Positions 25,748 to 40,764 of a stretch of 64,000 nt of DNA are shown here, one piece after another (position 1 is the stretch's first letter; each line of letters starts with the position of its first letter). Source of the DNA: Candidatus Omnitrophota bacterium (GTDB lineage: Bacteria > Omnitrophota > Gorgyraeia > Zapsychrales > JAHFFX01); NCBI GenBank assembly GCA_023247725.1, contig JAHFFW010000010.1:7734-71733 (forward strand), read 5' to 3'. The position numbers and the translations under genes were made by a program. The notes under the pieces are model-generated. The model did no database searches and was not told where the DNA came from. It saw nothing but the letters and a program-made list of their open reading frames with translations.

Positions 25748-25945
25748 ATGGTGAAAAAGGAAGAAGTTTTAACCGCAGAAGAAGTTGCGGAATATCTAAG
25801 GATTCATCCGTACACGCTGAGACGATTAGCCCGGGCAGGCAAACTCCCGGGCTTTAAAATTGGTGGGCAGTGGAGGTTTCGGAAAGATGAAATCGACGCA
25901 TGGTCAAAAGGATCTAAGAATAAGAAGAAAAAAGGGAAATCATAA
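25748..25945 (+). CDS. excisionase-family / MerR-type HTH DNA-binding protein
   Basis: LTAEEVAEYLRIHPYTLRRLARAGKLPGFKIGGQWRFRKDEIDAW is the 'excisionase family DNA binding domain' HTH pattern. 65 aa. The stop overlaps the next ATG. Confidence 0.6.
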   Translation: MVKKEEVLTAEEVAEYLRIHPYTLRRLARAGKLPGFKIGGQWRFRKDEIDAWSKGSKNKKKKGKS

Positions 25946-28900
25946 TGCCGAGAATCTTTGACAATATCGATCTTGATTTATTAACGGCCTTAAAAGAAAC
26001 TTTAAACGTTTCTAATCGTGCTGATTTCTGCGTTGGCTATTTTAATTTGAGGGGATGGAGGCAGATAGATTCTTATATTGAACGTTGGGCCGGTGGTGAG
26101 GGAAAGTGCTGCCGGTTGTTGGTCGGGATGTCAAAGTTACCCCAGGATGAATTGCGAGAAGCGCTAAGCCTTGTGAAGAACGAGGAAGGAATTGATAACC
26201 AAACGGCTTTACGCCTTAAGAAGAAACTAGCCGAGGAATTCCGAAACCAGTTAGCTTGGGGTATACCTACAAATGAAGATGAAGTTGGTCTGCGGCGTTT
26301 GGCATCACAAATTAAGGCTCAAAAGGTTGTGGTCAAGCTATTCCTGCGACACCCTCTCCATGCAAAACTCTATCTGCTTTTTCGTCCTGACCCCATTAAC
26401 CCTACTGTGAGTTATCTTGGCAGTAGCAATCTAACTTTCGCTGGTCTATCTAAACAAGGCGAGTTAAACATTGACGTGTTAGACCACGACGCTTGCCAGA
26501 AATTGTCCAGATGGTTTGAAGATAGATGGGATGATCACCGGTGCATTGATATTTCAAAAGAACTGGCAGATATAATTGATGAGAGTTGGGCGCGCGAGGA
26601 GCAGCCCATTCCTTATTACATATATCTTAAAATGGCTTATCACTTATCGCAGGAGGCTCGAGTTGGTCTGTCTGAATTTAAAATTCCAAAGGAGTTTGGT
26701 CAAAAGCTTTTTGAATTTCAAACAGCGGCGGTTAAGATAGCGGCTCACCATATTAATAAACGTGGTGGTGTGCTAATAGGTGATGTTGTGGGCTTGGGAA
26801 AAACACTAATGGCCACGGCCGTCGCGCGCATTTTCGAAGACGATCACGGACTCGAAACCTTAGTCATCTGCCCCAAGAACTTGGTCCCTATGTGGGAAGA
26901 CTACCGAGAGCAATATCGTTTACATGCCAAAGTGCTTTCCATCAATCGTGCGGCGCGAGAGCTTCCAAGTTTACGCCGATACCGCTTAGTTATTATCGAT
27001 GAGAGTCACAATCTTCGTAATCGTGAGGGGAAACGCTATCGAGCAATTCAAGAATATTTGCAGGAAAATGAAAGTAAGGTAATACTGCTTTCGGCTACTC
27101 CCTATAATAAAACCTATTTGGATTTATCTAATCAATTACGGCTTCTCGTTTCTGCTGATAGTGATATCGGGATTCGCCCCGAACGAAAATTGCGTGAAAT
27201 GGGTGAAACCGAATTTATCCGCCAGCATCAGTGTTCAGTTCGTTCTCTCGCCGCATTTGAAAAGAGTGAATATGCCGATGACTGGCGTGAGCTGATGCGC
27301 CTCTATCTTGTGCGCAGAACACGCACGTTCATCCAGGATAATTACGCTGAAACTGATCCAACGAATGGAAGAAAGTTTTTAACATTTGAAGACGGCACGC
27401 GATCCTATTTCCCGACCCGCATACCAAAGACTGTACCGTTTCATATTGACGATCATAATCCATCAGACCAGTATGCTCAGCTTTATGCGCCTGACGTTGT
27501 CGATATAATCAACCATCTCAATTTACCCAGATATGGTCTAGGCAATTATGTAGCCGCCACCCCCCATAAGCCGCCAACGGCAACTGAGCAAAAGATTTTA
27601 CAAGATCTTTCTCGTGCTGGTCGAAGACTCATGGGTTTCTCGCGAACAAACCTATTTAAACGTCTGGAGAGCAGCGGGCATGCTTTTCTCCAATCGGCTG
27701 AACGGCATATCTTACGGAATTTTATCTTTCTTCACGCTATCGAGAATGACCAGCCGATACCCATTGGAACGCAAGACGCCGAGATTCTCGATACACGATT
27801 CTCTGATGAAGATAAAACAGTTGAGTTATTTAACGATAATGATGACGATGGAGAAGTGGCTGAGGAAACGACATCACTAAGGAGTGAAAAAGATTTCAAA
27901 AATCGAGCTTCAGAAGTTTATTCAGAGTATTTCAAATTACACAAACATCGTTTTAAATGGCTGCCGCCGGAATTTTTCGTTAAATCACTGGCTAATGATT
28001 TACGAGCTGACATAGATACACTTATGAGAATTTTGAACAAATGCAAGCAGTGGGACCCTGCCAAGGATGCGAAACTCGATGCGCTTTACGACCTGTTAAT
28101 AAAAAAATACCCGAATGACAAAGTCCTGATTTTTACCCAATTCGCCGACACGGTACGTTATCTTGAGAAACAACTAACTGATCGTAAGGTTGCAAAACTG
28201 GCTGGCGTTACCGGTGACTCTTCTAATCCCACTGCCTTAGCCTGGCGCTTTAGCCCAATTAGCAATAACAAACAAGAGTATATTAAACCAGCTGATGAAC
28301 TTCGTGTATTAATTGCGACGGATATCCTGAGCGAGGGGCAAAACCTCCAGGATTGTTCCGTTGTGGTCAATTTCGACCTGCCCTGGGCTATCATTCGTTT
28401 AATTCAGCGGGTTGGACGCGTAGACCGTATCGGACAGAAAGCCGAGAAAATATTATGTTATTCATTTCTGCCAGCCGAGGGGGTTGAGCAAATTATTAAT
28501 TTGCGCAACCGTGTGCGACAGAGACTCAGTGAAAATGCCGAAGTGGTAGGGACAGATGAGGCATTTTTCGAAGACGACCGCGATGACAGAAGAGTGCTCG
28601 ATCTATATCACGAAAAATCCGGAATCTTGGATGGAGATGCTGACAGCGAAGTGGATCTTGCATCCTATGCCTACCAGATTTGGAAAAATGCTATTACAGA
28701 GAATCCGGAGTTGCAAAAAGTTATTCCTGAACTGCCGGATGTCGTTTACTCTACAAAACCAATTAAGCCAACTGAAAAAGAACCAGAGGGAGTATTGGTT
28801 TATCTTCGCACGGCAGAAGGAAATGACGCGCTCACTTGGGTCAGTAAAGACGGAAAAAGTGTTACCGAATCACAACTTACAATTCTTAAAGCCGCTGAGT

Positions 28901-29322
28901 GCGCGTCCAATACCCCTACAGTCCAGCGCATGGAAGAACATCATCAGTTAGTTCAGAAAGGCGTTGAGCTGATTGTCGCAGAAGAAAAGTCTGTCGGTGG
29001 CCAGTTAGGACGTCCATCGGGTGCGCGTTTCCGGACATACGAGCGTTTGAAACGATATGTAGAGGAAGTAAAAGGCACTCTTTTCGAATCCCAAGAACTA
29101 CTCAAAGCTATTGAGGAAATATACCGCTATCCCCTGCGGTCGACTGCCCTAGACACCCTCAACCGTCAATTAAGAAGCGGTATATCTGATCAGACATTGG
29201 CGGAATTGGTCGTGGCCCTCCGTGATGAAGGCCGATTGTGTATTATTAATGAGGAAGAGCAGGTTCACGAACCGCAGATTATCTGTTCTCTTGGGCTCGT
29301 TTCTAAGCGGGAGGCCAAGTAA
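25945..29322 (+). CDS. fused PLD-family (HKD) nuclease + SNF2-family helicase
   Basis: N-terminal HAKLYLL.....LGSSNLT (HxK...GSxN HKD motif). Then SNF2 motifs GDVVGLGKTLMA (I), VIIDESHNLRN (II, DExH), LLSATPYNK (III), QRVGRVDRIGQ (VI). 1125 aa. Confidence 0.85.
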   Translation: MPRIFDNIDLDLLTALKETLNVSNRADFCVGYFNLRGWRQIDSYIERWAGGEGKCCRLLVGMSKLPQDELREALSLVKNEEGIDNQTALRLKKKLAEEFRNQLAWGIPTNEDEVGLRRLASQIKAQKVVVKLFLRHPLHAKLYLLFRPDPINPTVSYLGSSNLTFAGLSKQGELNIDVLDHDACQKLSRWFEDRWDDHRCIDISKELADIIDESWAREEQPIPYYIYLKMAYHLSQEARVGLSEFKIPKEFGQKLFEFQTAAVKIAAHHINKRGGVLIGDVVGLGKTLMATAVARIFEDDHGLETLVICPKNLVPMWEDYREQYRLHAKVLSINRAARELPSLRRYRLVIIDESHNLRNREGKRYRAIQEYLQENESKVILLSATPYNKTYLDLSNQLRLLVSADSDIGIRPERKLREMGETEFIRQHQCSVRSLAAFEKSEYADDWRELMRLYLVRRTRTFIQDNYAETDPTNGRKFLTFEDGTRSYFPTRIPKTVPFHIDDHNPSDQYAQLYAPDVVDIINHLNLPRYGLGNYVAATPHKPPTATEQKILQDLSRAGRRLMGFSRTNLFKRLESSGHAFLQSAERHILRNFIFLHAIENDQPIPIGTQDAEILDTRFSDEDKTVELFNDNDDDGEVAEETTSLRSEKDFKNRASEVYSEYFKLHKHRFKWLPPEFFVKSLANDLRADIDTLMRILNKCKQWDPAKDAKLDALYDLLIKKYPNDKVLIFTQFADTVRYLEKQLTDRKVAKLAGVTGDSSNPTALAWRFSPISNNKQEYIKPADELRVLIATDILSEGQNLQDCSVVVNFDLPWAIIRLIQRVGRVDRIGQKAEKILCYSFLPAEGVEQIINLRNRVRQRLSENAEVVGTDEAFFEDDRDDRRVLDLYHEKSGILDGDADSEVDLASYAYQIWKNAITENPELQKVIPELPDVVYSTKPIKPTEKEPEGVLVYLRTAEGNDALTWVSKDGKSVTESQLTILKAAECASNTPTVQRMEEHHQLVQKGVELIVAEEKSVGGQLGRPSGARFRTYERLKRYVEEVKGTLFESQELLKAIEEIYRYPLRSTALDTLNRQLRSGISDQTLAELVVALRDEGRLCIINEEEQVHEPQIICSLGLVSKREAK

Positions 29323-29325
29323 ACT

Positions 29326-32300
29326 ATGCCCGTTGCCGTCGTCAATTGCAGGAATTACCTGAGGAATTTTGATCTAAATTCATTGTTTATCGAACAACTG
29401 GGCTGGGACATTCATGCCCAAACGTTGGAAGTCGCTGTTGACGGGAAAAATTTTATTTTAAATGCTGTAGCTCAAAAACGAGGCATGGCCGCATTTGTCC
29501 TTAATGGCCGCATTCCTGATTATTCCACGCGACGCAAAATTGAGCGTCAGGTAGCTAAGTCCGCCCATGAACACCTGATCATTTTTACTGATCCTGATCA
29601 GACAGTCCAAACATGGCAGTGGGTAAAGCGCGAGGCCGGGAAGCCAATCGCCTGCAGAGAGCATATTTATCACCGCAACCAATCCGGAGACGGGCTGATT
29701 CAGAAACTTCAAGCGATTGCCATTAGCATTGAAGAGGAAGAAAGCTTAACGCTTCCTCAAGTCGTTAACCGTGCGCGGACAGCCTTTGATGTCGAACGTG
29801 TCACTAAACGCTTCTATGATTGCTTCAAAACCGAACATGATGCTTTCTTCCGATTTATCAAAGGGATTCCTGATGATGAACTGCACCGCTGGTATGCTTC
29901 CGTTATGCTCAACCGGCTGATGTTCATCTATTTCATTCAAAAAAAAGGCTTCCTCGATGGTGATACTAATTACCTTCAGACGAAATTGATGCAAGCTAAG
30001 CAGCGGGGCAAAGATTGTTTCTATCGCGAACAGCTCTGCCCGCTATTCTTTGAGGGTTTCGCCAAAAAGCCCTCCCAGCGATCAGCCTCAAGTAACAAAC
30101 TTTTGGGCAAAGTGCCTTATCTAAACGGCGGGATCTTTCAACGTCATCAAATTGAAGAGCTTCATGGAAAACAAATTCAGATTTCCGATGCCGCCTTCGA
30201 GAAATTATTCAGTTTCTTTGAACAATACCACTGGCATTTGGACGAACGCCCGCTTCGCTCCGATAATGAAATCAACCCGGATGTTCTTGGTTACATTTTC
30301 GAAAAATACATCAACCAGAAGCAGATGGGGGCGTATTACACCAAAGAAGATATCACGGGCTACATCAGCAAATACACGATCAGTCCGTTCCTCTTCGAGG
30401 CGGCCCGCGGCAAATGCAAAGTGGCTTTTGAAAACCCTAAGGGACCTACTATCTGGGATTTGCTTAAAACCGATCCGGATCGTTATATCTATAATGCTGT
30501 CAAAAAAGGGATGAATCTGCCCCTGCCTCCGGAAATCGCGGCCGGGGTTAAGGACGTTGCCAAGCGCACCGAATGGAACAAACAAGCGTCCGAAGAATAT
30601 GCCCTTCCACCCGAAATTTGGCGCGAAGTCATTGAGCGGCGCAAACGCTATGAAGAAGTTAAAAGGAAACTAACCACAGGAGAAATCAAGGATATCAACG
30701 ATCTCATCACCTATAACCTCGACATTCGCCAGTTTGCCCAGGATGTCATAGAAAATTGTGAAGGCCCGGAATTGCTCCGTGCCTTTTGGCATGGTATTGA
30801 ACCAATTACCGTGCTCGACCCGACCTGCGGCAGCGGGGCGTTTTTGTTTGCCGCCGTGAACATTCTTGAGCCGCTTTACGAAGCCTGCCTTGACCGGATG
30901 GAGATGTTTGTTGAAGAGATGGAGTGTTCTGCTCAAAAACACCGCCCTGAGAAATTTTCCGATTTTCGCAAAATCCTAGAGCGTGTTGCTCAGCATCCCA
31001 ATCGCAGATATTTTATTTTCAAATCTATCATCGTCAATAACCTTTACGGTGTGGATATTATGGAAGAGGCTGTCGAAATCTGCAAGTTGCGCCTGTTTCT
31101 CAAGCTTGTTGCGCAGATTGACCGTGAAGAGCAAATCGAACCGTTGCCCGACATCGACTTCAATATCCGGGCCGGTAATACACTGATTGGCTATGCCACT
31201 TACGAGGAGATGAAAAGCGCCATTACAAGCCGGCTTGATTTTGATAATGCCTTGGATCGTATTGAAAAAAGGGCTCAGGATGTGGATCGACTGTTTAGTT
31301 TATTTCGTCAACAACAGACTGAATTAGGTGGCGAGGTCGCAGCTGAAGATAAACAGGTTTTACGAGATCGCCTTAAATCTCTTGAAGATGAACTCAATCA
31401 GTACCTCGCCAACGAATACGGCGTGGATACCAAGAAGCACGGTCCTTACGAACAATGGCTGAAAACGCATCATCCGTTTCATTGGTTTATCGAATTTTAC
31501 GGCATCATGAAGAAAGGCGGGTTCAATGTCATAATCGGTAACCCGCCATACCTTGAATTACGCGAAGTACGGTATACTCCCCAAAATTTTAAATGTGGGA
31601 ATAGTGGGGCAATCCATGCGATGTGTATCGAACGCAGTGTGCAGTTACTCCATCGACAGGGATGCATGAGCATGATTGTTCCATTGTCCTTGGTCTCAAC
31701 ACAACGAATGCAGATCGTTCAGGAAGTTCTAGAAACTAAACGAAACGCTTGGTATTCAAATTACTCGTGGCGCCCGGGTAAGCTTTTCGATACAGTTAAC
31801 CGCGCCCTGACTATCTTCGCTAGCACGCCATCAGAAAAAGGTAGAACATTCTCGACTAACTATCAGAAATGGACATCTGATAGTCGTGATTTACTTATGT
31901 TAAAACTCAACTTCATTGAAATCTTTCGACCGCGACCGGCTTGTTGGATTCCCAAACTTGGTAATGAGATAGAACCTTCAATTTTAAAGAAATGTTTACA
32001 AGTAAAAGTCCCATTAGGCAGTTTTATCCGAAATAATAATTACAGGATTTACTATCGCACCACTGGAGGCCTCTATTGGAAAGTATTTACAGATTTTCCA
32101 CCCGCATTCAAAGTTAATGGAAAGGTCGGTCACTCCAGTCGAGAAACTAAGTTTTCGTTAACCGACGCAAGATTTGTTTTTCCTGTCATAGCTGTTTTAA
32201 GCAGCGATCTGTTTTGGTGGTGGTACACTATCACAACTAATTGTCGTGATCTTAACCCTTATGATATACAGAATTTTCCTATTCCTGAATCTGCGATAAC

Positions 32301-32562
32301 TGACGCAGCGCTGTCAAGCTTAGGAGAAAAATACCTGAAAGATATTAAGCAAAATAGCATCATGCTGGTTCGTGTTCAAAGACAAACTGGCAGGACTCAA
32401 ACTCAGTCGTTTAAAATCCAAAAGACTAAGGCGATCATCGATGAAATTGACCAAGTGATAGCTAATCATTATAGGCTTAATCAAGAAGAGATAGACTTTA
32501 TCACAAATTATGACATCAAGTACCGCTTAGGTTTCGATGATGAAGATAACGATGAAGAATAG
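29326..32562 (+). CDS. MmeI/PglX-family (type IIG / BREX-like) N6-adenine DNA methyltransferase
   Basis: KVPYLNGGIFQ...LGYIFEKYINQKQMGAYYTKEDITGYI parallels MmeI (FPYINGKLFE...IFGSLFQSI...LGAHYTSEANI). Motif I VLDPTCGSGAFLFAAV and motif IV VIIGNPPYLE (NPPY). The N-terminal ~100 aa contain a possible degenerate PD-(D/E)xK (IIFTD...QWVK). ~1078 aa with a long C-terminal TRD-like region. Confidence 0.85.
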   Translation: MPVAVVNCRNYLRNFDLNSLFIEQLGWDIHAQTLEVAVDGKNFILNAVAQKRGMAAFVLNGRIPDYSTRRKIERQVAKSAHEHLIIFTDPDQTVQTWQWVKREAGKPIACREHIYHRNQSGDGLIQKLQAIAISIEEEESLTLPQVVNRARTAFDVERVTKRFYDCFKTEHDAFFRFIKGIPDDELHRWYASVMLNRLMFIYFIQKKGFLDGDTNYLQTKLMQAKQRGKDCFYREQLCPLFFEGFAKKPSQRSASSNKLLGKVPYLNGGIFQRHQIEELHGKQIQISDAAFEKLFSFFEQYHWHLDERPLRSDNEINPDVLGYIFEKYINQKQMGAYYTKEDITGYISKYTISPFLFEAARGKCKVAFENPKGPTIWDLLKTDPDRYIYNAVKKGMNLPLPPEIAAGVKDVAKRTEWNKQASEEYALPPEIWREVIERRKRYEEVKRKLTTGEIKDINDLITYNLDIRQFAQDVIENCEGPELLRAFWHGIEPITVLDPTCGSGAFLFAAVNILEPLYEACLDRMEMFVEEMECSAQKHRPEKFSDFRKILERVAQHPNRRYFIFKSIIVNNLYGVDIMEEAVEICKLRLFLKLVAQIDREEQIEPLPDIDFNIRAGNTLIGYATYEEMKSAITSRLDFDNALDRIEKRAQDVDRLFSLFRQQQTELGGEVAAEDKQVLRDRLKSLEDELNQYLANEYGVDTKKHGPYEQWLKTHHPFHWFIEFYGIMKKGGFNVIIGNPPYLELREVRYTPQNFKCGNSGAIHAMCIERSVQLLHRQGCMSMIVPLSLVSTQRMQIVQEVLETKRNAWYSNYSWRPGKLFDTVNRALTIFASTPSEKGRTFSTNYQKWTSDSRDLLMLKLNFIEIFRPRPACWIPKLGNEIEPSILKKCLQVKVPLGSFIRNNNYRIYYRTTGGLYWKVFTDFPPAFKVNGKVGHSSRETKFSLTDARFVFPVIAVLSSDLFWWWYTITTNCRDLNPYDIQNFPIPESAITDAALSSLGEKYLKDIKQNSIMLVRVQRQTGRTQTQSFKIQKTKAIIDEIDQVIANHYRLNQEEIDFITNYDIKYRLGFDDEDNDEE

Positions 32563-33151
32563 AACTCCTGCGGATATGGAAACTCGTGAAGTTTCAAGAG
32601 GCCATCACGATTATCCGAATCAACTCATTCGTTGTTTTGAGAATAGATCGCCTTTAATTATCACTATGCAAGGCAACATTTCGATTTTTCGAAATGATAA
32701 ATTGGCCCTCTTTTGTTCGGTCAAATGTCCCGGCAAGGTCATCATTACGCTTTATGACTATATGCAAGCTTTGTGTGAGCAAGGCCAAACGGTCATCAGC
32801 GGTTTTCATTCACCCTTGGAGAAAGAATGCCTCCGCATTCTGCTCCGCGGCCGACAACCAGTTATTATCTGCCCGGCTCGAGCTATTCAAAATATGCGCT
32901 TGCCGGAGGACTGGAAGAAACCGCTTCAAGAAGGCCAACTGCTTTTGATATCGCCTTTCAAGGGAAACCAACGTCGGGTTACTATAGATCATGCTCAACA
33001 ACGAAATGAATTTGTCGCAGCCCTAGCGGACAGGATATTGATTCCCTATTCGTTCCCTGGTGGACGAACGGAAAAACTGCTTGAAAAGATTTCGCGCTGG
33101 AATAAACCCATTCTAACAGATATCGGATCAACCATGCAGTTTGCAAGATAA
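32537..33151 (+). CDS. DprA/Smf-like Rossmann-fold (SLOG) protein
   Basis: YPNQLIRCFENRSPLIITMQGN...LALFCSVKCPG...VISGFHSPLEKECLRILLRG...VIICPA...LLLISPF....RNEFVAALADRILI matches the DprA core (YP.LL..i.dpP.vLy.rG...vAiVGSRk.s...SGlA.GID..aH..aL..gG.tiaVl..gl...vvSE.....RNriiagLs..vlvve). The start overlaps the MTase stop (translational coupling). Confidence 0.65.
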   Translation: MMKITMKNRTPADMETREVSRGHHDYPNQLIRCFENRSPLIITMQGNISIFRNDKLALFCSVKCPGKVIITLYDYMQALCEQGQTVISGFHSPLEKECLRILLRGRQPVIICPARAIQNMRLPEDWKKPLQEGQLLLISPFKGNQRRVTIDHAQQRNEFVAALADRILIPYSFPGGRTEKLLEKISRWNKPILTDIGSTMQFAR

Positions 33152-33235
33152 ATAGTGACAGCGACCATTAGCCGAGATTGAAATGGTCGAGAATTTCGAT
33201 TAATAAAAAACTAAGAGATTTTCAATATTTATGAC

Positions 33236-33270
33236 GGCAAGGCCTAAGATTGGTTTTGCCATTTTTTATT
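33236..33270 (+). terminator. weak terminator-like hairpin after the MTase/DprA-like operon
   Basis: GGCAA-(15 nt)-TTGCC followed by ATTTTTTATTTATT. A second hairpin CGACCATT-N12-AATGGTCG lies at 33162-33189. Confidence 0.3.
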
Positions 33271-33305
33271 TATTGGGATCTGTTTTTGCTCGTTAAAGAT
33301 TTTCA

Positions 33306-33334
33306 TTGACAAAAATAAAGTCAATTGATATAGT
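33306..33334 (+). promoter_or_regulatory. strong sigma70-like promoter (TTGACA-17-TATAGT) driving the Ubl-conjugation operon
   Basis: ttgaca aaaataaagtcaattga tatagt lies ~40 nt upstream of the first ORF of the operon. Flanked by two CAATTG palindromes, a possible operator. Confidence 0.55.
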
Positions 33335-33375
33335 ATGTGCAATTGTAACAGTTTAATTGAATATGGAGGTGTGAA

Positions 33376-33549
33376 ATGGTCGCAAAACCAACGATTCAGG
33401 AGCTAGAGGCTCTTTTAAATAGTGAAGAGGAGACGCCTATGCAAATTCTTCCTAATGGGGAAATCAGAGCCGTTGGGCAGACAAATCCTGCTGATCTTGC
33501 AGGGAAGAAGCCAATAACCATGAAAGAAGATTTAGGTGGAGAATATTGA
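33376..33549 (+). CDS. 57-aa ORF ending ...KEDLGGEY; candidate ubiquitin-like/Pup-like modifier or conjugation substrate
   Basis: Not in the ORF track because it is under 60 aa. RBS GGAGGTG 6 nt upstream of ATG 33376. The stop overlaps the start region of the E2 gene. Translation: MVAKPTIQELEALLNSEEETPMQILPNGEIRAVGQTNPADLAGKKPITMKEDLGGEY. It is the first gene after the strong promoter. The di-Gly lies 2 residues from the C-terminus, in an operon that encodes E1, E2 and a JAB peptidase. Confidence 0.4.
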   Translation: MVAKPTIQELEALLNSEEETPMQILPNGEIRAVGQTNPADLAGKKPITMKEDLGGEY

Positions 33550-33551
33550 TT

Positions 33552-33926
33552 ATGGATACTGGTCGTATTCAAAGAGAATTTTTAGAAGCCCAAAGAGCCT
33601 TTTCCTACATTGAGCTTCACCCTACTATCGATGGCAAGGTGTACGTAAAGACAGCGCTCCAAGCTTCAAATCAAATGTATATTCTATCCATTAAGTTCCC
33701 AGATGGTTATCCGAACGAGATGCCAAGAGTATTTGTTGATACCCCAGCCATAACGACTGCTCCACACAGATATCAAAATGGCCATATCTGTTATCTTCAC
33801 CCTACGATGTGGAATCCAGGAATTCACAATATTTCTTTTGTAATTGCGCGGGCAGCAAAATGGTTAAACAAATATGAGATTTGGAAACGTCAAGGTCAGT
33901 GGCCCGGTGCGGAGATTAAACACTAA
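33552..33926 (+). CDS. E2-like ubiquitin-conjugating enzyme (UBC fold, catalytic Cys)
   Basis: FPDGYPNEMPRVFV.....PHRYQNGHICYLHPTMWNPG matches the UBC core (..P..PP.v.F.t.i.HPN....G.ICLdiL...WsP). Start taken at ATG 33552 (MDTGRIQ) with GGTGGAG as RBS. Confidence 0.65.
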   Translation: MDTGRIQREFLEAQRAFSYIELHPTIDGKVYVKTALQASNQMYILSIKFPDGYPNEMPRVFVDTPAITTAPHRYQNGHICYLHPTMWNPGIHNISFVIARAAKWLNKYEIWKRQGQWPGAEIKH

Positions 33927-33938
33927 GAGAAGGTAACT

Positions 33939-34472
33939 ATGAAAATAGATTTTAAAACTTTAAAAATGATGGAATTGAGAAGTTCTCCTGGAGAGGTTTT
34001 AGATCGGGTAGCCAGAGATGGGGAGGTATTTGTCATTGAGAGAAATGGTCAGCCCAAAGCATGCCTTGTTCCGGTTTCTTTTCTTCTGCCTGATATTTCT
34101 CCAGAAAGGATAACGGAGGAGTTAAATAAACTTCGCGATAAAAAGGAAAATTATAAATTAACGATTAATGATCATAAGGAACTTGAGATTAAATTTCAGG
34201 AGAGTGCTGCTGGCGAAAATATTGTAATCAGTATCGTGCTGCCACACGGGTATCCCAACGCTGCTCCCAGAATTGACGCACAGGGTATTCCAGAAAACAC
34301 GCCCCATCGATGGCAAGATGGGTCTTTATCGATTTTTGGAACCATAGCAACGTGGAATACCAAGAGTCACGATATCATTTACGCATTAATTGTAGCCAGA
34401 AGTTGGCTTAAGCAATACGCGAAATGGCGAAAAACTGGTGAATGGCCAAAAGATTTGCAGGACGGATCATGA
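33939..34472 (+). CDS. Phd/YefM-like N-terminal domain fused to a catalytically inactive E2 variant (UEV-like)
   Basis: N-terminus LKMMELRSSPGEVLDRVARDGEVFVIERNGQPKACLVPVSFL matches the Phd/YefM antitoxin fold pattern. C-terminus LPHGYPNAAPRIDA....PHRWQDGSLSIFGTIATWN is paralogous to the upstream E2, but the active-site Cys is replaced by Ser. Confidence 0.55.
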   Translation: MKIDFKTLKMMELRSSPGEVLDRVARDGEVFVIERNGQPKACLVPVSFLLPDISPERITEELNKLRDKKENYKLTINDHKELEIKFQESAAGENIVISIVLPHGYPNAAPRIDAQGIPENTPHRWQDGSLSIFGTIATWNTKSHDIIYALIVARSWLKQYAKWRKTGEWPKDLQDGS

Positions 34473-35323
34473 AAAAAGATCAAACATTCGAGAGAATTGA
34501 CTCCCTTTTTGATATTCAACTTTTGGCACCTGTCCGGGTGCTATTCGCTGGCTGTGGCTCCGGTGGAGGAAGTGTAGCTCTCCAACTTGTCATGTCGGGA
34601 ATTCGTAATTTTACACTTTTAGATCGGGATATCCTTGGAGCAGAAAATGTTATTAGGCATGTTTGCGGAAGAAGTTTTATAGGGAAAAAGAAAGTCGATG
34701 CCTTAACGGAAATTTTACAGGACAGGAATCCAAATATCGATGTCAAAAAGATAGAAGCGGACATAATGAATTTTTCGGATATTGAATCAGAAATTTGCGG
34801 ATCTGATGTTGTTGTTTTGGCGACGGACAACGAACCATCCCGTTATAAAATTAATGAAATTTGCGTAAAAAATGAAATTCCTTTTGTCGTGGGACGGGTT
34901 TTTACCAGAGGTATTGGAGGCGAGGTCTTTAGTTATCGACCTGACTCTGGGGGATGTTTGGCTTGTCTTGAATCTTTTTTGCAGCGTACTTCATATAGAG
35001 AAGGGATAAGGGAGATAGATCTTGTTTCTGAGGAAGAGCGGGAGAAAATTTATGGTATGGAAATTTCAGAAATAAAAGACTCCCCCGGTCTGGCGGTGGA
35101 TATTTCCTTTATTACTTCTTTCCATACAAGGTTTGTATTGGACGCTATTGCGCGGCGTTTGAAAGATCGGCCTAAGTATTTGAATTTGATAGATGAAAAT
35201 TATTTAGTTTGGGGGAACCGGCCGGTGCATCCGTTTAAGAAACATTTTCAGTTGCAAAGATTTAATTTAGATCGTCAGGAGAGTTGCGCACTATGCTCGG
35301 AGAGGAATGTGGCCGATGTTTAA
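34469..35323 (+). CDS. E1-like ubiquitin-activating enzyme (ThiF/MoeB family)
   Basis: VLFAGCGSGGGSVALQLVMSGIRNFTLLDRDILGAENVIRH (Rossmann GxGxxG + D.D.v..sNl.RQ) and two CxxC pairs (GGCLACLE...CALCSE). ATG 34469 overlaps the upstream stop (ATGA). Confidence 0.8.
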   Translation: MKKDQTFERIDSLFDIQLLAPVRVLFAGCGSGGGSVALQLVMSGIRNFTLLDRDILGAENVIRHVCGRSFIGKKKVDALTEILQDRNPNIDVKKIEADIMNFSDIESEICGSDVVVLATDNEPSRYKINEICVKNEIPFVVGRVFTRGIGGEVFSYRPDSGGCLACLESFLQRTSYREGIREIDLVSEEEREKIYGMEISEIKDSPGLAVDISFITSFHTRFVLDAIARRLKDRPKYLNLIDENYLVWGNRPVHPFKKHFQLQRFNLDRQESCALCSERNVADV

Positions 35324-36236
35324 ATCAAAAAAGCCAGAGGTTAATATTTATATTCCGAAATCAGCACTTGGTGTGATTTATGATGAATGTGATCAGTATG
35401 ACCTTGATGAAACAGGCGGCAGGCTCATTGGAAATTATAAAAAAAATGGTAATAAATATACAATTGAGGTCTCAGGGATTATAGAACCCGGCCCAAAAGC
35501 GACAAGGACAGCAACGAGCTTTTTTCAGGACGGAGAATATCAGGAGAAGATTTTTAGATCAGTTGAAGAAAAACATCCCGACGTTGAACATCTGGGAAGT
35601 TGGCACACACATCACGTTAATGGCCTTGATACTTTGAGTTCTGGTGATAGGGCTACTTACCAGAGGATTGTCAATCACCATATGCATAATACGGATTTTT
35701 TCTATGCGCTTTTAGTTGTTGAAAAGAAAACCGGCGGGCAACAAAGGTATACGATCAAACATTATTTCTTGCGTCGCAAAGATTCGGCGATTTATGAAAT
35801 TCCGGACTCACAGGTTCACATTATAGATAAGCCCCTCATTTGGCCGTTCAGCGGCGCAAATAATTATTTACCGTCGTCTATACCTAAGGCTGTGGAGGTC
35901 AAAAGCAACTCCAATCAGGAACGTGTCAAAGATCAAGAATTTTTCGCTGAATTTTATTCCGGCTTTAAGCCTTTATTCTCAAAGAACACGAATGCCTTTT
36001 ATTGGAAAGGTAAATTGAATCTTGTTGATAACACCTTTTTAGACGTGGTGGTTATAGAAAATCAGGATGATCATGGATGGGCCTATTCGATCGCTGTTGC
36101 TGATCAGATCCCATCAATATCCAATATTTTGACAAGTTACAAAGATCGTACCTTTAAATCTGCAAGGCTTGCCGTGTTTAATATAGAGAGAAACATCAAT
36201 CAAGGAATTTATCTTAAAAAGGAATCAAATGTATGA
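35307..36236 (+). CDS. JAB/JAMM (MPN+) metallopeptidase, deubiquitinase-like
   Basis: ETGGRLIG ... HLGSWHTHHVNGLDTLSSGD fits the JAMM motif E...H(S/T)H-x7/8-S-x2-D. Confidence 0.8.
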   Translation: MWPMFKSKKPEVNIYIPKSALGVIYDECDQYDLDETGGRLIGNYKKNGNKYTIEVSGIIEPGPKATRTATSFFQDGEYQEKIFRSVEEKHPDVEHLGSWHTHHVNGLDTLSSGDRATYQRIVNHHMHNTDFFYALLVVEKKTGGQQRYTIKHYFLRRKDSAIYEIPDSQVHIIDKPLIWPFSGANNYLPSSIPKAVEVKSNSNQERVKDQEFFAEFYSGFKPLFSKNTNAFYWKGKLNLVDNTFLDVVVIENQDDHGWAYSIAVADQIPSISNILTSYKDRTFKSARLAVFNIERNINQGIYLKKESNV

Positions 36237-37072
36237 ACATTATCACAGTCAATGTTGGTCAAGGTGCCCTTTCCTTGGTAAGACATAATAAGGAAGCAAT
36301 TGTAATTGATTCTAGAATTCCACCTTCAGATGACAAAACTGTCGCTTATGTGAAAGAAATGTTGATGGTGTCGCTAAAGGATCACTATGTTAAGGGTCTT
36401 ATATTAACCGGTTTTGATAGTGATCATTCGGATATAACGGGAGTTTCTATTATTCTCCGTAAGTATCGCCCTGATTGGGTCGTGTATCCCAAGTACTATA
36501 AGGAGAGTGAAGAGGCGAGATCGGTTTTTGAACGAATAGAACAAGAGGAAAAAGAAAGATGCAGTTCAACAAATCCTTTGAAAAGAATTTCTGTTAGACT
36601 TGATCAACTAAAGAATCGAAAACTTGTGGGGCTCTCTTCAAACTTTGAGTTTGAATTATTTTCTCCCCATATTGAGGATATGGACTGTTCTAACAATTGC
36701 AGTATTGTACTTAAATTGTCTGGAATCGGGGCAGGCGGTTTTTCATATTTGATAACGGGCGATACAGAAAATGAAAGATGGGAAACAATTAGCAAATTTT
36801 TTGGCGAGGCTCTTAAATCTCATATTTTGGCTGCGCCGCATCATGGCTCAAAAAACGCTACCCATCCCGCATCCCTGCTTCATATTGAACCTCACACTGT
36901 ACTTATCAGCGCTGGCGTAGACAATCAATATGGCCATCCCGACCCGGAGGCCTTAAGAGTTTATAGCCGGGTTGCAAAATTTGTATTCTCCACAAATATG
37001 CAAAACGGTGTTTCACTTTTTACGCGGGACGGAATAACCGGATTTACCACGGAATTGATCCCAAGTAATTAG
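36233..37072 (+). CDS. MBL-fold protein, ComEC/Rec2 C-terminal nuclease-like, degenerate motif I
   Basis: VNVGQGALSLV...AIVIDS...LILTGFDSDHSD (HxHxDH degenerated to GFDSDH) ... ITGDTE...ILAAPHHGSKNA (ComEC-type HHGS). ATG overlaps the JAB stop (ATGA). Confidence 0.65.
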   Translation: MNIITVNVGQGALSLVRHNKEAIVIDSRIPPSDDKTVAYVKEMLMVSLKDHYVKGLILTGFDSDHSDITGVSIILRKYRPDWVVYPKYYKESEEARSVFERIEQEEKERCSSTNPLKRISVRLDQLKNRKLVGLSSNFEFELFSPHIEDMDCSNNCSIVLKLSGIGAGGFSYLITGDTENERWETISKFFGEALKSHILAAPHHGSKNATHPASLLHIEPHTVLISAGVDNQYGHPDPEALRVYSRVAKFVFSTNMQNGVSLFTRDGITGFTTELIPSN

Positions 37073-37148
37073 TATATGTGCAATGCTATGTTAAGAGTTC
37101 TGTTATTCTTGTGTGTCAACGCAGTCGGAAAATATCGAAATGAGGTAA

Positions 37149-38249
37149 ATGGATATGGGTTATGATGTAGATTTTTTACCGGTAGGTGACGGAGAGAAGG
37201 GGGGCGATGCGATTGCTGTGCGATGGGGAAATCTAAACGGGAATCGCACAGAACAGAAAGTAATGGTCATTGATGGAGGGACGAAAGATTCAGGGAATGC
37301 TCTTGTAAAACACATTAAAGAATATTACAAAACTGATTTTGTTGATTATGTATTTTGTACTCATCCGGATGCCGATCATGCCTCTGGATTAACGGTTGTC
37401 TTAGAAGAATTAAAAGTTGGTATCTTGTGTATGCATCGTCCATGGGAACATGCCGCAGATATTAAAAATTTGTTTCAGAATGGGAAGATAACAGCAACGA
37501 GTCTCAGAGAAAATCTTCGTAAGGCACTCGAGAACGCGCATGAACTTGAAAGCATTGCGACTAAAAAAGGTATCAAGATTTTTGAGCCGTTTTCCGATAG
37601 TGTTACGAATTCAAATTCTCCATTGACAATTTTAGGACCCAGTGAGGAATTTTATCAATTGATGCTTGCTAATTTTCGGGAAACGCCCAAGCCGAAGGAT
37701 AATGTTAATATTCTCGGTCGCAGTGCTATACTTACCGCCGTTCGGGAAGCAATCCGATGGATAGGGGAAACATGGGGAGTGGAAACCCTTGCAGATCCTG
37801 AGGAGTTTGAAACGAGTGCAGAAAATAATTCCAGCGTTATACTTCTTTTACAGGTTGATGGAAATAAGCTTCTCTTTACGGGCGATGCAGGTGTTGAATC
37901 TCTTGATGCTGCTATTAATAAAGCAATTACTTTGGGGATTGATTTAACGGGTATTTCCTTTATTCAAATTCCGCATCATGGGAGTAAGCATAATGTCAGT
38001 CCATCTCTACTCGATAAACTGGTTGGTCCTAAATTAACCAATGATATTTCTAATAAAACAGCGTTTGTGAGTGTGCCCTTAAAGGGAGATCCAAAGCATC
38101 CATCAAGGAAAGTGACAAATGCCTTCAAAAGGCGAGGTGCGAAGGTTATAGCAACAAAAGAAAGCACGAAACATCATTTTAAAGATGCCCCTGATCGCGG
38201 CTGGGTTAAGGCGGAACCATTGCCTTTCTATGACCAAGTTGCTGATTAG
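37149..38249 (+). CDS. MBL-fold protein, ComEC/Rec2 C-terminal nuclease-like (paralogue of 36233..37072)
   Basis: VDFLPVGDGEKGGDAIAV...VMVIDGGT...YVFCTHPDADHASG ... LLFTGDAGVESLD...IQIPHHGSKHN. The start may be ATG 37155, which has better RBS spacing. Confidence 0.65.
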   Translation: MDMGYDVDFLPVGDGEKGGDAIAVRWGNLNGNRTEQKVMVIDGGTKDSGNALVKHIKEYYKTDFVDYVFCTHPDADHASGLTVVLEELKVGILCMHRPWEHAADIKNLFQNGKITATSLRENLRKALENAHELESIATKKGIKIFEPFSDSVTNSNSPLTILGPSEEFYQLMLANFRETPKPKDNVNILGRSAILTAVREAIRWIGETWGVETLADPEEFETSAENNSSVILLLQVDGNKLLFTGDAGVESLDAAINKAITLGIDLTGISFIQIPHHGSKHNVSPSLLDKLVGPKLTNDISNKTAFVSVPLKGDPKHPSRKVTNAFKRRGAKVIATKESTKHHFKDAPDRGWVKAEPLPFYDQVAD

Positions 38250-38972
38250 ATGTTAAAAGGAATCGATGTGATAAGACACGATAACTATACTTGGTATGCG
38301 CGGATCTATCCGGTCTTCATTGTTATCTTTCCGATAACCCTTGTTTGCATGGTTTGGTTTCAACCGTTGCTAGGATTTCTGACGGGTATCCTAAGTTCAG
38401 GGATAGCGAGTATTTTGTTTTCGCAGTTAGGGCGTGACCAAGGGAAATACAAGGAATCTAAATTATTTGAACTGTGGGGAGGGAATCCCGCTGTTCGCAT
38501 GCTTAGATATCGTGATTCGGTGTTAAGTCAGGTTACGGTTAGACGGATTCATGAGAAGCTTGCGAGTTTGGTGGCCAATACATATGCTGTGAACGAGAAA
38601 GAAGAAAAGGAAGATGCGGTAAAAGCGGATACTGTTTACACGTCGTGGGTTGAATGGTTGCGATCAATGACGCGGGATCAGAGTAAATTTTATCTTCTTT
38701 TTGCAGAAAATAAAAATTATGGATTCCGAAGAAATCTTTGGGGCATGAAATCCATAGGAATTTTGGTTTCCGTTTTATCATTAGTTGCGATCACTATTGC
38801 GCTTTATAGTGAATGGATGCGGATCGGATCTATTTCTTCGATAACTTTAGGGGCTTTTCTTTTCGTCATCTTTTGTTTTATTTTTTGGGTCTTTTGCTGT
38901 ACACCAAAATGGATACGCATTACTGCTGAAGCATATGCTAAACAACTGTTAGAGACTGTAGATCAGTTATAA
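38250..38972 (+). CDS. 4-TM membrane protein (2 TM + soluble loop + 2 TM), candidate effector or anchor
   Basis: Hydrophobic helices at ~18-40 and ~42-62 (IYPVFIVIFPITLVCMVWF; GFLTGILSSGIASILFSQL) and ~165-185 and ~195-215 (IGILVSVLSLVAITIALY; ITLGAFLFVIFCFIFWVFCC). Last gene of the operon; the start abuts the MBL2 stop. Confidence 0.5.
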   Translation: MLKGIDVIRHDNYTWYARIYPVFIVIFPITLVCMVWFQPLLGFLTGILSSGIASILFSQLGRDQGKYKESKLFELWGGNPAVRMLRYRDSVLSQVTVRRIHEKLASLVANTYAVNEKEEKEDAVKADTVYTSWVEWLRSMTRDQSKFYLLFAENKNYGFRRNLWGMKSIGILVSVLSLVAITIALYSEWMRIGSISSITLGAFLFVIFCFIFWVFCCTPKWIRITAEAYAKQLLETVDQL

Positions 38973-39051
38973 TTTTCGCAGTAGAATTAGCAAAGAGGAT
39001 CTGGGAGTAGATTAGAGCTTTATCAGGCGATCAATAGTTTGTTTGTGGGCT

Positions 39052-39447
39052 TCAAGAATGATTATTATTTGGTTGAGAGCTTTGGGCAAGGTTGCACAGT
39101 TGTTTGACGTTCATTTGGCGGAGGATTTTGGGGTCGTTACAATTGGCAAGTTCTGTGATAAGATTTGATGGTAGTCGATTAGCGATTGTGAGGAGTTTTG
39201 AGATGCGTTTACGGGGGATGTTCAATTTGGCGGCCGCGGAGAGGCAGGTTTCGTCCGGGTGCGCGGTCATGAAATTCTTCACCTGGAGCGCTTCAAGGAT
39301 GCAGTTTTGTGGCGGGGCCGGGGCCCGCGATCGTATTTCGGGCAGGGGCAGGTCGATTGAGGCCTGTAAAGCGCCGTAGCGTCTGGCATGGAATCTCATA
39401 ACCAATTGCGCCACAGGCGGTTCGCGGTTTTGACTTCCGCCAAGCAA
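39052..39447 (-). pseudogene. ParB-like (nuclease/HTH) gene remnant, N-terminally truncated
   Basis: RFHARRYGALQASIDLPLPEI resembles the ParB GERRyRAaklaGl..iPaiV box. The downstream region ...LSAAAKLNIPRKRISKLLTIANRLPSNLITELA...LRQMNVKQLCNLA resembles the ParB HTH region. The ~60 aa upstream of the box are missing. Flanked by AT-rich DNA. Confidence 0.35.
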
Positions 39448-39627
39448 CAGACCCCAGATTTTTACCCCGACAGGATGTTCGAACTCTTTCCAAAATTTTC
39501 TTAAAGCCCGATAATAAAATTTTTTTAAGAAGTTGAGATATTCGGCAAAGAATAATTTAGTTTTGAAATGTAAGGAGTTTATATTAGAATCAGAAAAAAT
39601 TTGAGATAAGTAAAAAGGAGTTCATTC

Positions 39628-40764
39628 ATGAAACTACGAGCGGTTGTTTTAGGGGCAGGTTTTGGTGGACTTGAACTGACCACCATACTTTCTGAAGCTC
39701 TCGGCGATCGCCTGGATCTCACGCTCATTGATAAGAACGACGCTTTCTATTTTGGTTTTTCAAAACTGGATGTTATGGTCGGCCATGAGAAGCCCGCAAA
39801 TGTGCGCGTCCCTTACCATCACATTAACAAACCCGGCGTGAAATTTCGCCGAGAGGAGATAACCTCCATTGATCCAGCCGCAAAACGCGTTAAAACGGAT
39901 AAGGCGGTTTACGACGCGGATGTTTTGGTTATCGCCTTGGGATCTGATTATGATTTTAAGGCGACACCTGGGCTCGTCGAATACGGACATGAATTCTATA
40001 GTCTTGAAGGTGCCGAGCGTCTAAGTAAATTGCTTCCGAATTTTTCAAAAGGCCGTATTGTGATCGGTGTCAGTGGAACTCCTTTCAAGTGTCCGCCTGC
40101 GCCCAGCGAAGCGGCGCTCATGCTGCATGATTATCTCACGAAACGCGGTGTACGTAAAAATTGTGAAATAACTCTCGCCATGCCTTTTGGTGTCCCCATT
40201 CCTCCATCGCCGGAAACCTCTCAGGCGCTCTTAGTTGCTTTTGCTGAACGCAACATAACCTTTGTCCCTAAAAAAACGGTAGTGGCGCTCGACCCGGGCA
40301 AGAGTGTTGTACAGTTTGATGATAACAGCACGTTACCTTATGATTTATATCTCGGAATTCCGAAACATTGTGTTCCAGCGGTGGTTGCCTCAAGCGGTTT
40401 GACAGAGGAAGGATGGGTAGTCCCCAACCCCAAGAATCTCAAAACTAAGTTTCCTGGCGTATATGCGGTGGGTGATGTGACGAGAATTGGGCCCCCGAAA
40501 GCGGGGTTGTTCGCGGAAGGGGCCGCAAAAGTGGCCGCTGCCACGATTCTAGCGGATCTTCAAGGTGGTGAATATCCTGCGGCTTATGACGGGGCGGGAA
40601 CCTGTTATATTGAGTTTGGGGGAGGCAAGGTTGGGCGTGTAGATGTAAAATTCCTTGCAGGACCAACGCCTACGGGGCGTTATTTCGCACCTTCCACTGA
40701 TCTCGTCGTTGAAAAGAAGTATTTTGGATCCAGTCGCCGGGCTCGCTGGTTTGGATTGCGATAA
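39628..40764 (+). CDS. FAD-dependent pyridine nucleotide-disulfide oxidoreductase, sulfide:quinone oxidoreductase-like
   Basis: N-terminal AVVLGAGFGGLE (FAD GxGxxG), GTPFKCPPAPSEAAL (SQR-like Cys motif), second dinucleotide fold GVYAVGDV. RBS AAAGGAG. Confidence 0.6.
   Translation: MKLRAVVLGAGFGGLELTTILSEALGDRLDLTLIDKNDAFYFGFSKLDVMVGHEKPANVRVPYHHINKPGVKFRREEITSIDPAAKRVKTDKAVYDADVLVIALGSDYDFKATPGLVEYGHEFYSLEGAERLSKLLPNFSKGRIVIGVSGTPFKCPPAPSEAALMLHDYLTKRGVRKNCEITLAMPFGVPIPPSPETSQALLVAFAERNITFVPKKTVVALDPGKSVVQFDDNSTLPYDLYLGIPKHCVPAVVASSGLTEEGWVVPNPKNLKTKFPGVYAVGDVTRIGPPKAGLFAEGAAKVAAATILADLQGGEYPAAYDGAGTCYIEFGGGKVGRVDVKFLAGPTPTGRYFAPSTDLVVEKKYFGSSRRARWFGLR

Follow-up and report, generated by a model that had tools for sequence, protein, structure and literature searches.

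An unnamed, widespread E1/E2/JAB cassette with a candidate GGEY mini-protein modifier and swappable effectors in an Omnitrophota genome

Introduction

What does a ubiquitin-type conjugation pathway act on when its operon encodes neither a recognizable β-grasp ubiquitin-like protein (Ubl) nor a nucleotidyltransferase resembling cGAS or DncV (CD-NTase)? The question is raised by an operon at 33306-38972 (+ strand) of a 64-kb stretch of DNA, here called the window, from Candidatus Omnitrophota bacterium (GenBank assembly GCA_023247725.1, contig JAHFFW010000010.1, positions 7,734 to 71,733). A first-pass annotation, made from the sequence alone, had described eight genes (g1 to g8) for a 57-aa protein, two E2s, an E1, a JAB/JAMM peptidase, two metallo-β-lactamase (MBL)-fold proteins and a membrane protein, and had considered the combination unlike any described system. 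To our knowledge, operons with E1, E2 and JAB belong to type II CBASS (an antiphage system that signals through cyclic oligonucleotides) and Pycsar, 6A-MBL, Bil I/II or Bub, and the donor is always a β-grasp Ubl or the operon's own enzyme.

All eight open reading frames (ORFs) lie on the + strand at the positions originally given. Comparison with related loci indicates that the operon represents an unnamed, widespread variant of the Cap2/Cap3-6A-MBL kind of conjugation system. We favour, with fair though not high confidence, the view that it is a mobile conflict cassette (most likely anti-phage and of the abortive-infection type) in which g1 would be matured by the JAB, conjugated by E1/E2 and thereby control MBL and membrane effectors; that confidence applies to the outline and is lower for each of its details.

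Results and discussion

Conservation of the operon

A scan with the E1 (g4) of one genome per species yielded 28 loci, and about 35 related loci were compared overall. The 28 are from at least 10 phyla (among others Acidobacteriota, Omnitrophota, Elusimicrobia, Alphaproteobacteria, Myxococcota, Planctomycetes, Verrucomicrobia and Thermodesulfobacteriota), and one of them is from an archaeal Methanosarcinales metagenome-assembled genome (MAG). The order g1-g2-g3-g4-g5-g6 is kept in these loci wherever the contig allows, and the same six-gene core occurs on plasmid pMspAR10a of Mesorhizobium sp. AR10 (L032, 5808-10714), a cultured carrier in which PGAP annotation provides generic names only, and on three metagenome contigs. 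Only about 4 of 29 loci have g7, namely the window, L009, L017 (on the opposite strand) and L020. The eight-gene unit of the first-pass annotation thus gives way, from this comparison, to a six-gene core plus one variable gene, with g7 as an occasional add-on. Isolated phages yielded one weak E1 match (30% identity).

The GGEY protein

First in the operon in all loci, g1 (33376-33549, +) encodes the 57-aa protein ending in LGGEY, whose reality as a gene, proposed from the ORF alone, is borne out by its conservation. Homologues with 55-86% identity lie 5' of E2 in 26 of the 28 genome loci, and relatives form 201 clusters at 90% identity and 540 at 50% identity (224 of the latter at E ≤ 1e-10), every cluster unnamed; Pfam, PADLOC and NCBIfam contain no family that matches g1. 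The invariant positions are L10, L14, E17, P21, L25-P-N-G-E-I-R31, P46, T48, E51 and L53-G-G-E-Y57, and K45 is nearly invariant. GGEY is present in 233 of 238 relatives, and what follows it is variable: no residue past Tyr in 63, 1-13 in most and 153 at the maximum, with G (74), A (47) or S (16) as the first tail residue. One relative is a natural in-frame g1-E2 fusion protein. An invariant GGEY with variable tails is, as read from the alignment, the signature of a precursor that has to be cut back to one set position close to Gly-Gly. Since g1 is also the sole operon product with a conserved GG close to a variable C-terminus, its conservation and position make it the candidate for the conjugated species. 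There is precedent for both features, since in Bil Ubls as many as 9 variable residues come after a conserved Gly and BubAB is cut by its own peptidase (PMC10557695, PMC11601596), and since Cap2-type enzymes act on the tail of a non-Ubl protein, the CD-NTase (PMC11601596, PMC10097602).

A β-grasp fold was considered for g1 and rejected. The AlphaFold2 (AF2) model, built on a 41-sequence alignment, consists of a helix and a β-hairpin, after which come two one-turn helices and a free tail (pLDDT 76, pTM 0.39), and neither a fold relative (Foldseek against PDB) nor a sequence relative (profile search of PDB) was found. We therefore conclude from the model and these searches that the predicted fold of g1 is not β-grasp, in line with the original claim that the operon has no full β-grasp Ubl.

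At a Vicinamibacterales locus (L012, 5271-5747) the g1 frame runs for about 100 residues beyond GGEY and about 330 nt separate g1 from E2, either as an extreme variable tail or as an assembly or frameshift artefact.

The conjugation enzymes

The E1 ATP site is intact, the E2 catalytic Cys is present and the JAMM metal site is complete, all invariant in 27-29 homologues. The catalytic E2, g2 (33546-33926, +, 126 aa; probable start ATG 33552, giving 124 aa), matches UQ_con at 4e-5 (just under the Pfam gathering score), PADLOC E2 models at down to 2.6e-13 and, as a precomputed match, the E2-CBASS family PF26395. Its closest solved structure is UBE2W, and all 29 of 29 homologues have His74 and Cys82, so that its assignment as a catalytic E2 stands; it is of the CBASS type. 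The C-terminus reads WPGAE(I/V)xH in most homologues, with a few substitutions, and every true g2 homologue terminates in a free C-terminal His.

The adjacent g3 (33939-34472, +, 177 aa) combines a Phd/YefM-type domain (aa 7-47) with an E2 paralogue (aa ~55-172). The N-domain passes curated cut-offs (PhdYeFM, 4.2e-7 and 30.1 bits against a gathering threshold of 29.8; TIGR01552, 24.1 bits against 20.8), PGAP labels the g3 of the Mesorhizobium sp. AR10 plasmid as an antitoxin, and HHalign relates the E2-like domain to g2 at E = 1.4e-40. The fusion, the paralogy and Ser131 at the position of the catalytic Cys are therefore as first described, for a protein likened to ubiquitin E2 variants (UEVs), but the Cys-to-Ser change is a trait of a clade and not of the family. 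Position 131 is Cys in 17 of 29 homologues, Ser in 9, Ala in 2 and Gln in 1, and the 17 retain both His and Cys. Only the clade nearest the window (L001-L010, L023) has lost the Cys, and often the His with it, and the distant clade has both residues; the g3 of the window retains the His, which most other members of its clade have lost. An active/inactive E2 pair thus exists in the clade of the window but not in those 17 homologues. With the losses limited to one clade, g3 was probably catalytic ancestrally, and the role it would have retained everywhere is a non-catalytic one.

The E1, g4 (34442-35323, +, 293 aa; probable start 34469, giving 284 aa), is of the ThiF/MoeB type with CxxC pairs, as annotated: it matches Pfam ThiF at 4.9e-31 and PADLOC E1-E2 models at down to 1.5e-32, and its closest solved structures are MoeB (7.6e-13), MccB (1.8e-11), SAE1 and ThiF. 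The alignment with MccB begins only at residue ~28, so g4 is without the N-terminal peptide clamp of that enzyme. Invariant in g4 are the ATP loop (GCGSGG), the Arg motif (NVIRH), D129, two Zn-binding CxxC pairs (172/175 and 282/285), Y204-G205 and E210-I-K-D-S214-P-G-L217. No Cys is found at residues 176-281, the crossover region where the E1 catalytic Cys usually lies, and conserved Cys residues are limited to the ATP loop, C75, C141 and the Zn site. As judged from their invariance, C75, Y204 and S214 are candidates for an unconventional nucleophile; in Bub, E1 and E2 enzymes function without catalytic cysteines and Tyr/Ser chemistry is possible (PMC11601596).

In g5 (35307-36236, +, 309 aa; probable start 35316), a JAB/JAMM domain (aa ~10-175) and a disordered linker (183-200) precede a conserved C-terminal α-β4-α-α domain (aa 205-309). 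The match to Prok-JAB is just under the gathering score (4.5e-5), that to PADLOC JAB models reaches 2.1e-16, E35, H100, H102, S111 and D114 are invariant, and the N-domain of the AF2 model (pLDDT 85) matches AMSH, Rpn11 and Cap3 (Cap3 structure 9ild), which together confirm a JAMM peptidase. The topology of the C-terminal domain prompted its consideration as a third E2/RWD domain, rejected because HHalign against both E2 alignments gave a probability below 1%; Foldseek matches of the g5 model were all to the JAB domain and none to this one. Relatives of g5 form 1436 clusters at 90% identity. The later starts given here for g2, g4 and g5 are independent gene calls on identical contigs.

Stand-alone JABs of about 136-190 aa with intact catalytic motifs occur on six IMG/VR phage contigs (L036-L041); they are about 50% identical to g5 residues 10-175 and come without the C-terminal domain or any other cassette gene. 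In the two contigs inspected, they adjoin terminase-large and portal/adaptor genes (L038, 8998-9507; L040, 9013-9504). Such proteins could be deconjugases directed against the cassette, or the source of its JAB. A JAB paralogue was looked for in the prophage of the window and not found.

MBL proteins and the variable seventh gene

The conserved core ends with g6 (MBLa; 36233-37072, +, 279 aa), a ComEC-like MBL-fold protein whose closest solved relative is the ComEC MBL domain (6.6e-14) and which matches TIGR00361 ComEC_Rec2 (1.8e-26, 92.5 bits). Its motif II is modified, with Gly in place of the first His (G60-x-D62-x-D64-H65), and the conserved residues are D62, D64, H65, H146, D177, H203, H204 and H235. 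The C-termini of g6 vary in length and sequence, with no conserved terminal Gly or Ala, for which reason MBLa was rejected as a C-terminal donor in the manner of a CD-NTase. The second MBL-fold hydrolase, g7 (MBLb; 37149-38249, +, 366 aa), has an H-x-D-x-D-H motif, is accessory to the core and matches PADLOC PDC-M48B (3.3e-102) and LmuA (8e-29), besides being Avs1a-like; among the matches listed, no neighbour of g7 matches PDC-M48A. The two had been taken as ComEC-type MBL paralogues: both are indeed MBL-fold proteins and g6 is ComEC-like, but g7 is a different MBL and the pair is only remotely related.

The last gene, g8 (38250-38972, +, 240 aa), encodes the predicted four-transmembrane (4-TM) protein, with 3-4 hydrophobic spans flanking a loop of about 105 aa, and is the version in the window of the variable seventh gene. 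Across the loci this position is taken by a member of the 4-TM superfamily in about 16 (g8-like proteins and a second subfamily; HHalign 98% between them), a patatin-like lipase in about 10 (Pfam 6.3e-15), other small TM proteins in 2 and an HExxH protein in 1. The patatin matches CapV-type and CBASS phospholipase models only marginally (E = 0.005 and 7e-4). The pattern of replacement indicates a swappable, mostly membrane-directed effector, and a swappable patatin or TM gene is typical of abortive-infection systems.

Promoter, gene junctions and a candidate operator

A terminator-like hairpin (33236-33260) separates the operon from the genes upstream. It is followed by a sigma-70-type promoter (33306-33334, +), TTGACA-17-TATAGT with an extended -10 TG and 11/12 matches, which is the top-scoring sigma-70-like site within 32400-39700 and agrees with the one originally proposed, and by a GGAGG ribosome-binding site 5' of the g1 ATG at 33376. 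Read directly, g3/g4 and g5/g6 each join through an ATGA overlap, g4 and g5 share 8 nt (ATGTTTAA), and there are gaps of 2 nt at g1/g2, 12 nt at g2/g3 and 76 nt at g6/g7; the g7 stop is followed by the g8 start codon with 0 nt between them, or 18 nt with the later g8 start (38268) of the gene callers. The ATGA overlaps are thus as first noted, but translational coupling does not extend to all eight genes, since the 76-nt gap breaks the string.

Between the -10 element and the ribosome-binding site is an operator-like palindrome, GTATGTGCAATTGTAACA (33333-33350, +), with the core TGCAATTGTA at 33338-33347. In 19 of 26 loci, which represent many phyla, a GCAATYG/CAATTG motif lies within 90 bp 5' of g1, where it is about 25-fold enriched relative to the rest of those loci; the palindrome is of the type GTGCAATTG(T/C)A, and GCAATCGCAC in the diverged clade. 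Because the motif accompanies the operon from phylum to phylum, its regulator must do likewise, and g3, the only operon protein with a DNA-binding fold in Pfam and NCBIfam searches, is the sole candidate. By this elimination, we infer that the Phd domain of g3 autoregulates the operon at the palindrome.

The g6/g7 gap contains a second copy of the operator-like word, ATATGTGCAATGC (37074-37086, +), in which the promoter-proximal word ATGTGCAAT recurs with TAGTAT before it. The operator-like word has only two matches in the 64-kb window, but 8 of 100 shuffles also yield two, so this statistic is weak. The second copy may be an internal promoter and operator for g7-g8, and it is suggestive of these genes being an appended module. 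There was no Rfam match in 32-40 kb and no tRNA within the window.

Relation to named systems

Profiles of Pfam, PADLOC and NCBIfam confirm an E1/E2/JAB operon without a CD-NTase but with MBL and membrane partners. The cassette is unnamed in NCBIfam (June 2026), PADLOC v2 and Pfam, and none of these libraries assigns its genes to Bil, Bub, CBASS or 6A-MBL as a system of equal composition. We found no description of this gene set in the literature; Ledvina 2023, Burroughs 2009/2011 and van den Berg 2024 possibly hold one. The claim that the combination is unlike described systems therefore holds in that no library names it, but has to be tempered in that the cassette is an unfused, expanded relative of 6A-MBL.

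Fusions of E2, E1 and JAB beside a specialised MBL make up operon type 6a of Iyer 2006 (PMC1779556), now validated as the anti-phage 6A-MBL system (PMC13276650, PMC11601596). Like it, the cassette has E2, E1, JAB and a specialised MBL but no CD-NTase, and is mobile and defence-associated. Unlike 6A-MBL, which has two genes (the E2-E1-JAB fusion and the MBL), the window has E2, E1 and JAB as three ORFs, besides features absent from that system: the second E2 with its Phd/YefM domain, the C-terminal domain of the JAB, the 57-aa GGEY protein and the seventh effector; moreover, g6 is nearer to ComEC (TIGR00361) than to the 6A-MBL enzyme. Scores against the 6A-MBL models, NF058523 (cap2_3, cut-off 320 bits) and NF058524 (MBL enzyme, cut-off 220 bits), are 51.2 bits for g4 (over aa 30-125 only), 43 for g5, 39 for g6 and 33.5 for g7. 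These are all far under the cut-offs and hence indicate relationship, not membership.

Types 6b (type II CBASS), 6c/6d (Bil) and 6e (Bub) do not fit either, as each has a defining feature that the cassette lacks. With type II CBASS the cassette shares an E2 of family PF26395, an E1 and JAB that match many PADLOC Cap2 and Cap3 models, the fit of the JAB to 9ild, swappable effectors (patatin, TM, nuclease) and, by analogy, a machinery that would act on a C-terminal tail and not on a β-grasp domain. It differs from CBASS in having a free mini-protein as the candidate donor, an E2 that is not fused to the E1, and an extra, E2-like protein of repressor type. None of the eight proteins has an NTase match of its own and related loci have no CD-NTase; the match of g2 to the oligonucleotide-cyclase model PDLC00816 covers only the C-terminal, E2-like segment of the model. 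The effectors carry none of the cyclic-nucleotide sensor domains looked for (SAVED, STING, CapV-type).

As in Bil and Bub, candidate substrate, E2, JAB and E1 are separate genes and the presumed precursor has variable residues after a conserved Gly, but MBL and membrane effectors set the operon of the window apart from both. Bil and Bub modifiers carry one to three β-grasp domains (PMC11601603). Unlike them, g1 has no β-grasp fold for all its conserved GG, and the Bil E1 is a large IAD-AAD-CYS protein where g4 is a single adenylation domain of 284-293 aa. Bub hallmarks were also not found: there is no DUF6527 or BubE-type protease, g2 has an invariant Cys82 and not Ser, and position 131 of g3 can be Ala or Gln as well as Ser.

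Two comparisons reach beyond these operons. Pup is a tag of about 60 aa, non-β-grasp and largely unstructured, with an end of the Gly-Gly-Glu/Gln type, and is ligated via the side chain of its terminal Glu by the glutamine-synthetase-like PafA. With Pup, g1 has in common its small size, a non-β-grasp fold and the GGE-Y end, but it is accompanied by E1/E2 and shows no sequence similarity. In the clade of the window alone, g2 and g3 recall Ubc13-Mms2/Uev1a, in that the gene for an active E2 lies beside that for a paralogue without the catalytic Cys; unlike that pair, 17 of 29 second E2s have both residues, and the second E2 is fused to a domain of the Phd/YefM DNA-binding type.

Proposed mechanism and alternatives

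In the pathway that we propose, g1 would be made as a precursor with an invariant LGG-EY followed by a tail of any length, which the JAB g5 would trim, most likely after Gly55 and less likely after Tyr57. A JAMM enzyme, QbsD, strips the Cys-Phe dipeptide from the GG-CF end of QbsE. The ThiF-type E1 g4 would adenylate the exposed carboxylate of g1, and the acyl group would pass to Cys82 of g2, either directly or via an unconventional E1 nucleophile, as no catalytic Cys was identified in g4. Ligation of g1 to a target would follow, and g5 would also reverse the conjugates. g3 would act as a partner or scaffold that dimerises, binds DNA via Phd/YefM, probably represses the operon at the CAATTG-core operator, and couples conjugation status to expression. 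The output would be the ComEC-like MBL, a presumed nuclease, together with the swappable membrane-directed effector (4-TM here, patatin lipase elsewhere). From the company that the cassette keeps and its distribution, we infer that its role is most likely anti-phage and that it is horizontally mobile.

Several observations weigh against this pathway or its defensive role. No defence library names the cassette, several related loci lie outside obvious defence islands, and a scan of IMG/VR detected no complete cassette in viral contigs, only stand-alone JABs. g1 does not have the β-grasp fold, and the invariance of E56 and Y57 would be unusual for residues that are discarded, so that they could belong to the mature end. 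The canonical E1~thioester step finds no support, given the lack of a conserved Cys in the crossover region. MBLa may lack nuclease activity, as its motif II is missing the first His, and the operator is linked to g3 by elimination only.

The best surviving alternative, which we nevertheless regard as unlikely, is priming of the 6A-MBL or CBASS kind. Here E1/E2 would conjugate MBLa or the seventh effector via its own C-terminus, with g1 as an acceptor (through Lys45), an inhibitor of the E1/JAB site or a small regulator. Such a mode of action is described for the nearest named relatives, 6A-MBL and type II CBASS (PMC11601596), MBLa is within the conserved core, and a g1 without a Ubl fold and with an invariant EY past GG would fit a pseudo-substrate or inhibitor. 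Such priming is however difficult to reconcile with the variable C-termini of MBLa, devoid of a conserved terminal Gly or Ala, and with a seventh gene that is swapped among unrelated families and so offers no common tail; g1 alone has a conserved GG near a variable C-terminus, and a g1-E2 fusion exists.

Somewhat less likely again is an addiction or abortive module resembling a toxin-antitoxin (TA) system, with the MBL and membrane proteins as toxins, g3 as a labile antitoxin and repressor, and E1/E2/JAB/g1 tuning the stability of g3 as a Pup-type degron, defence being secondary or absent. That the Phd/YefM domain of g3 passes curated cut-offs and PGAP calls it an antitoxin, that operator and promoter overlap as they do in type II TA autoregulation, that g3 can do without its catalytic residues in one clade and that the cassette is mobile and adjoins other TA modules would all fit. 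On the other hand, an E2 fold replaces the toxin-binding C-terminal segment of Phd/YefM, a six-gene enzymatic cascade exceeds what a TA system needs, and the relatives of its enzymes sit in validated defence systems; this alternative also overlaps with the pathway proposed above and does not exclude it.

Very improbable is a biosynthetic, sulfur-carrier or RiPP-like (ribosomally synthesised and post-translationally modified peptide) pathway with no conflict role, in which a MoeB/MccB-like enzyme would adenylate g1 as a ThiS/QbsE-like carrier or peptide precursor after JAMM trimming, for although MoeB and MccB are the best solved relatives of g4, no crossover-region catalytic Cys is present and QbsE/QbsD provide a precedent for a JAMM enzyme removing two residues after GG, the loci examined all lack a rhodanese, sulfurtransferase, cysteine desulfurase, exporter or tailoring enzyme, the operon has a pair of E2 domains (g2 with invariant Cys/His), patatin, TM and MBL partners are present, the E1 is without the MccB clamp, and the context is a prophage or plasmid.

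Conjugation of g1 by the cassette's own enzymes, our preferred reading, can be taken further, tentatively and with clearly less confidence than the outline. The GGEY protein would then be a new class of modifier, a mini-tag without β-grasp, JAB-matured and E1-E2-conjugated, whose conjugation derepresses and arms an abortive-infection cassette, and phages would reply with stand-alone JAB deconjugases. The tag might be attached to the Phd-E2 repressor, to the membrane effector or to a phage protein, or else to a membrane lipid, for which Atg8 would be the analogy. If true, ubiquitin-type enzymology would need no ubiquitin fold even for a free, dedicated tag. With g1 as a tag, the cassette would form a bridge between Cap2, with its 'tail-only' recognition, and ubiquitin and other free modifiers, and bear on the origins of Ubl systems. 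In any case, it adds a further widespread class (its JABs form more than 1,400 clusters at 90% identity and its g1 proteins 540 at 50%, in many phyla and one archaeal MAG), offers a natural experiment in E2/UEV evolution in which catalytic residues were lost in one clade, and brings a repressor-E2 fusion with a recognisable operator and a probable phage counter-measure. The seven-gene operon of a cultured Mesorhizobium strain makes these ideas directly testable.

Genomic setting and neighbouring genes

Upstream of the operon, late genes of the siphovirus type (terminase, portal, major head protein, tape measure, central tail fibre and tail-collar fibre) occupy 143-23981 of the window, followed by small ORFs and an HTH_17 gene before a helicase gene. 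From 39.6 kb onwards the genes are ordinary chromosomal ones (GH15, dehydrogenases, RND efflux). GC content is 0.39-0.41 over the operon against 0.45-0.55 on both flanks. It is reasonable to view the operon as low-GC cargo at the tail end of a prophage, and its original placement in a defence island inside a prophage is likewise reasonable, as it comes after the prophage tail genes and beside a defence-like set. Elsewhere, the cassette is chromosomal or plasmid-borne and sometimes adjoins TA pairs.

That neighbouring set comprises three genes at 25945-33151, and its profile matches give it the look of a second defence system in the same cargo region. It consists of a phospholipase D and SNF2 helicase (25945-29322; NCBIfam phospholipD_antiphage and DrmD-like, both sub-threshold), a 1078-aa enzyme like type IIG restriction-modification enzymes (29326-32562; PADLOC REase_MTase_IIG, 1022 bits, E = 0) and, overlapping the gene for the latter, a DprA-like gene (32537-33151; PADLOC PsyrA, 4.4e-18). 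On the other side, between the cassette and the first chromosomal gene, 38973-39627 contains a - strand ORF (39052-39447, 131 aa) with no Pfam match and a GC-rich hairpin (39312-39328), and may be the prophage/host junction.

A more distant relative of the E1 (29% identity) is encoded in a different unnamed cassette on plasmid pBb323S2b of Bradyrhizobium barranii (L042, 2951-9321). This cassette comprises a JAB (346 aa), a 155-aa protein, a ThiF protein (483 aa), a 215-aa protein, a protein with a dsDNA nuclease domain and a TIR protein, and suggests that more uncatalogued cassettes of E1/JAB plus effectors exist.

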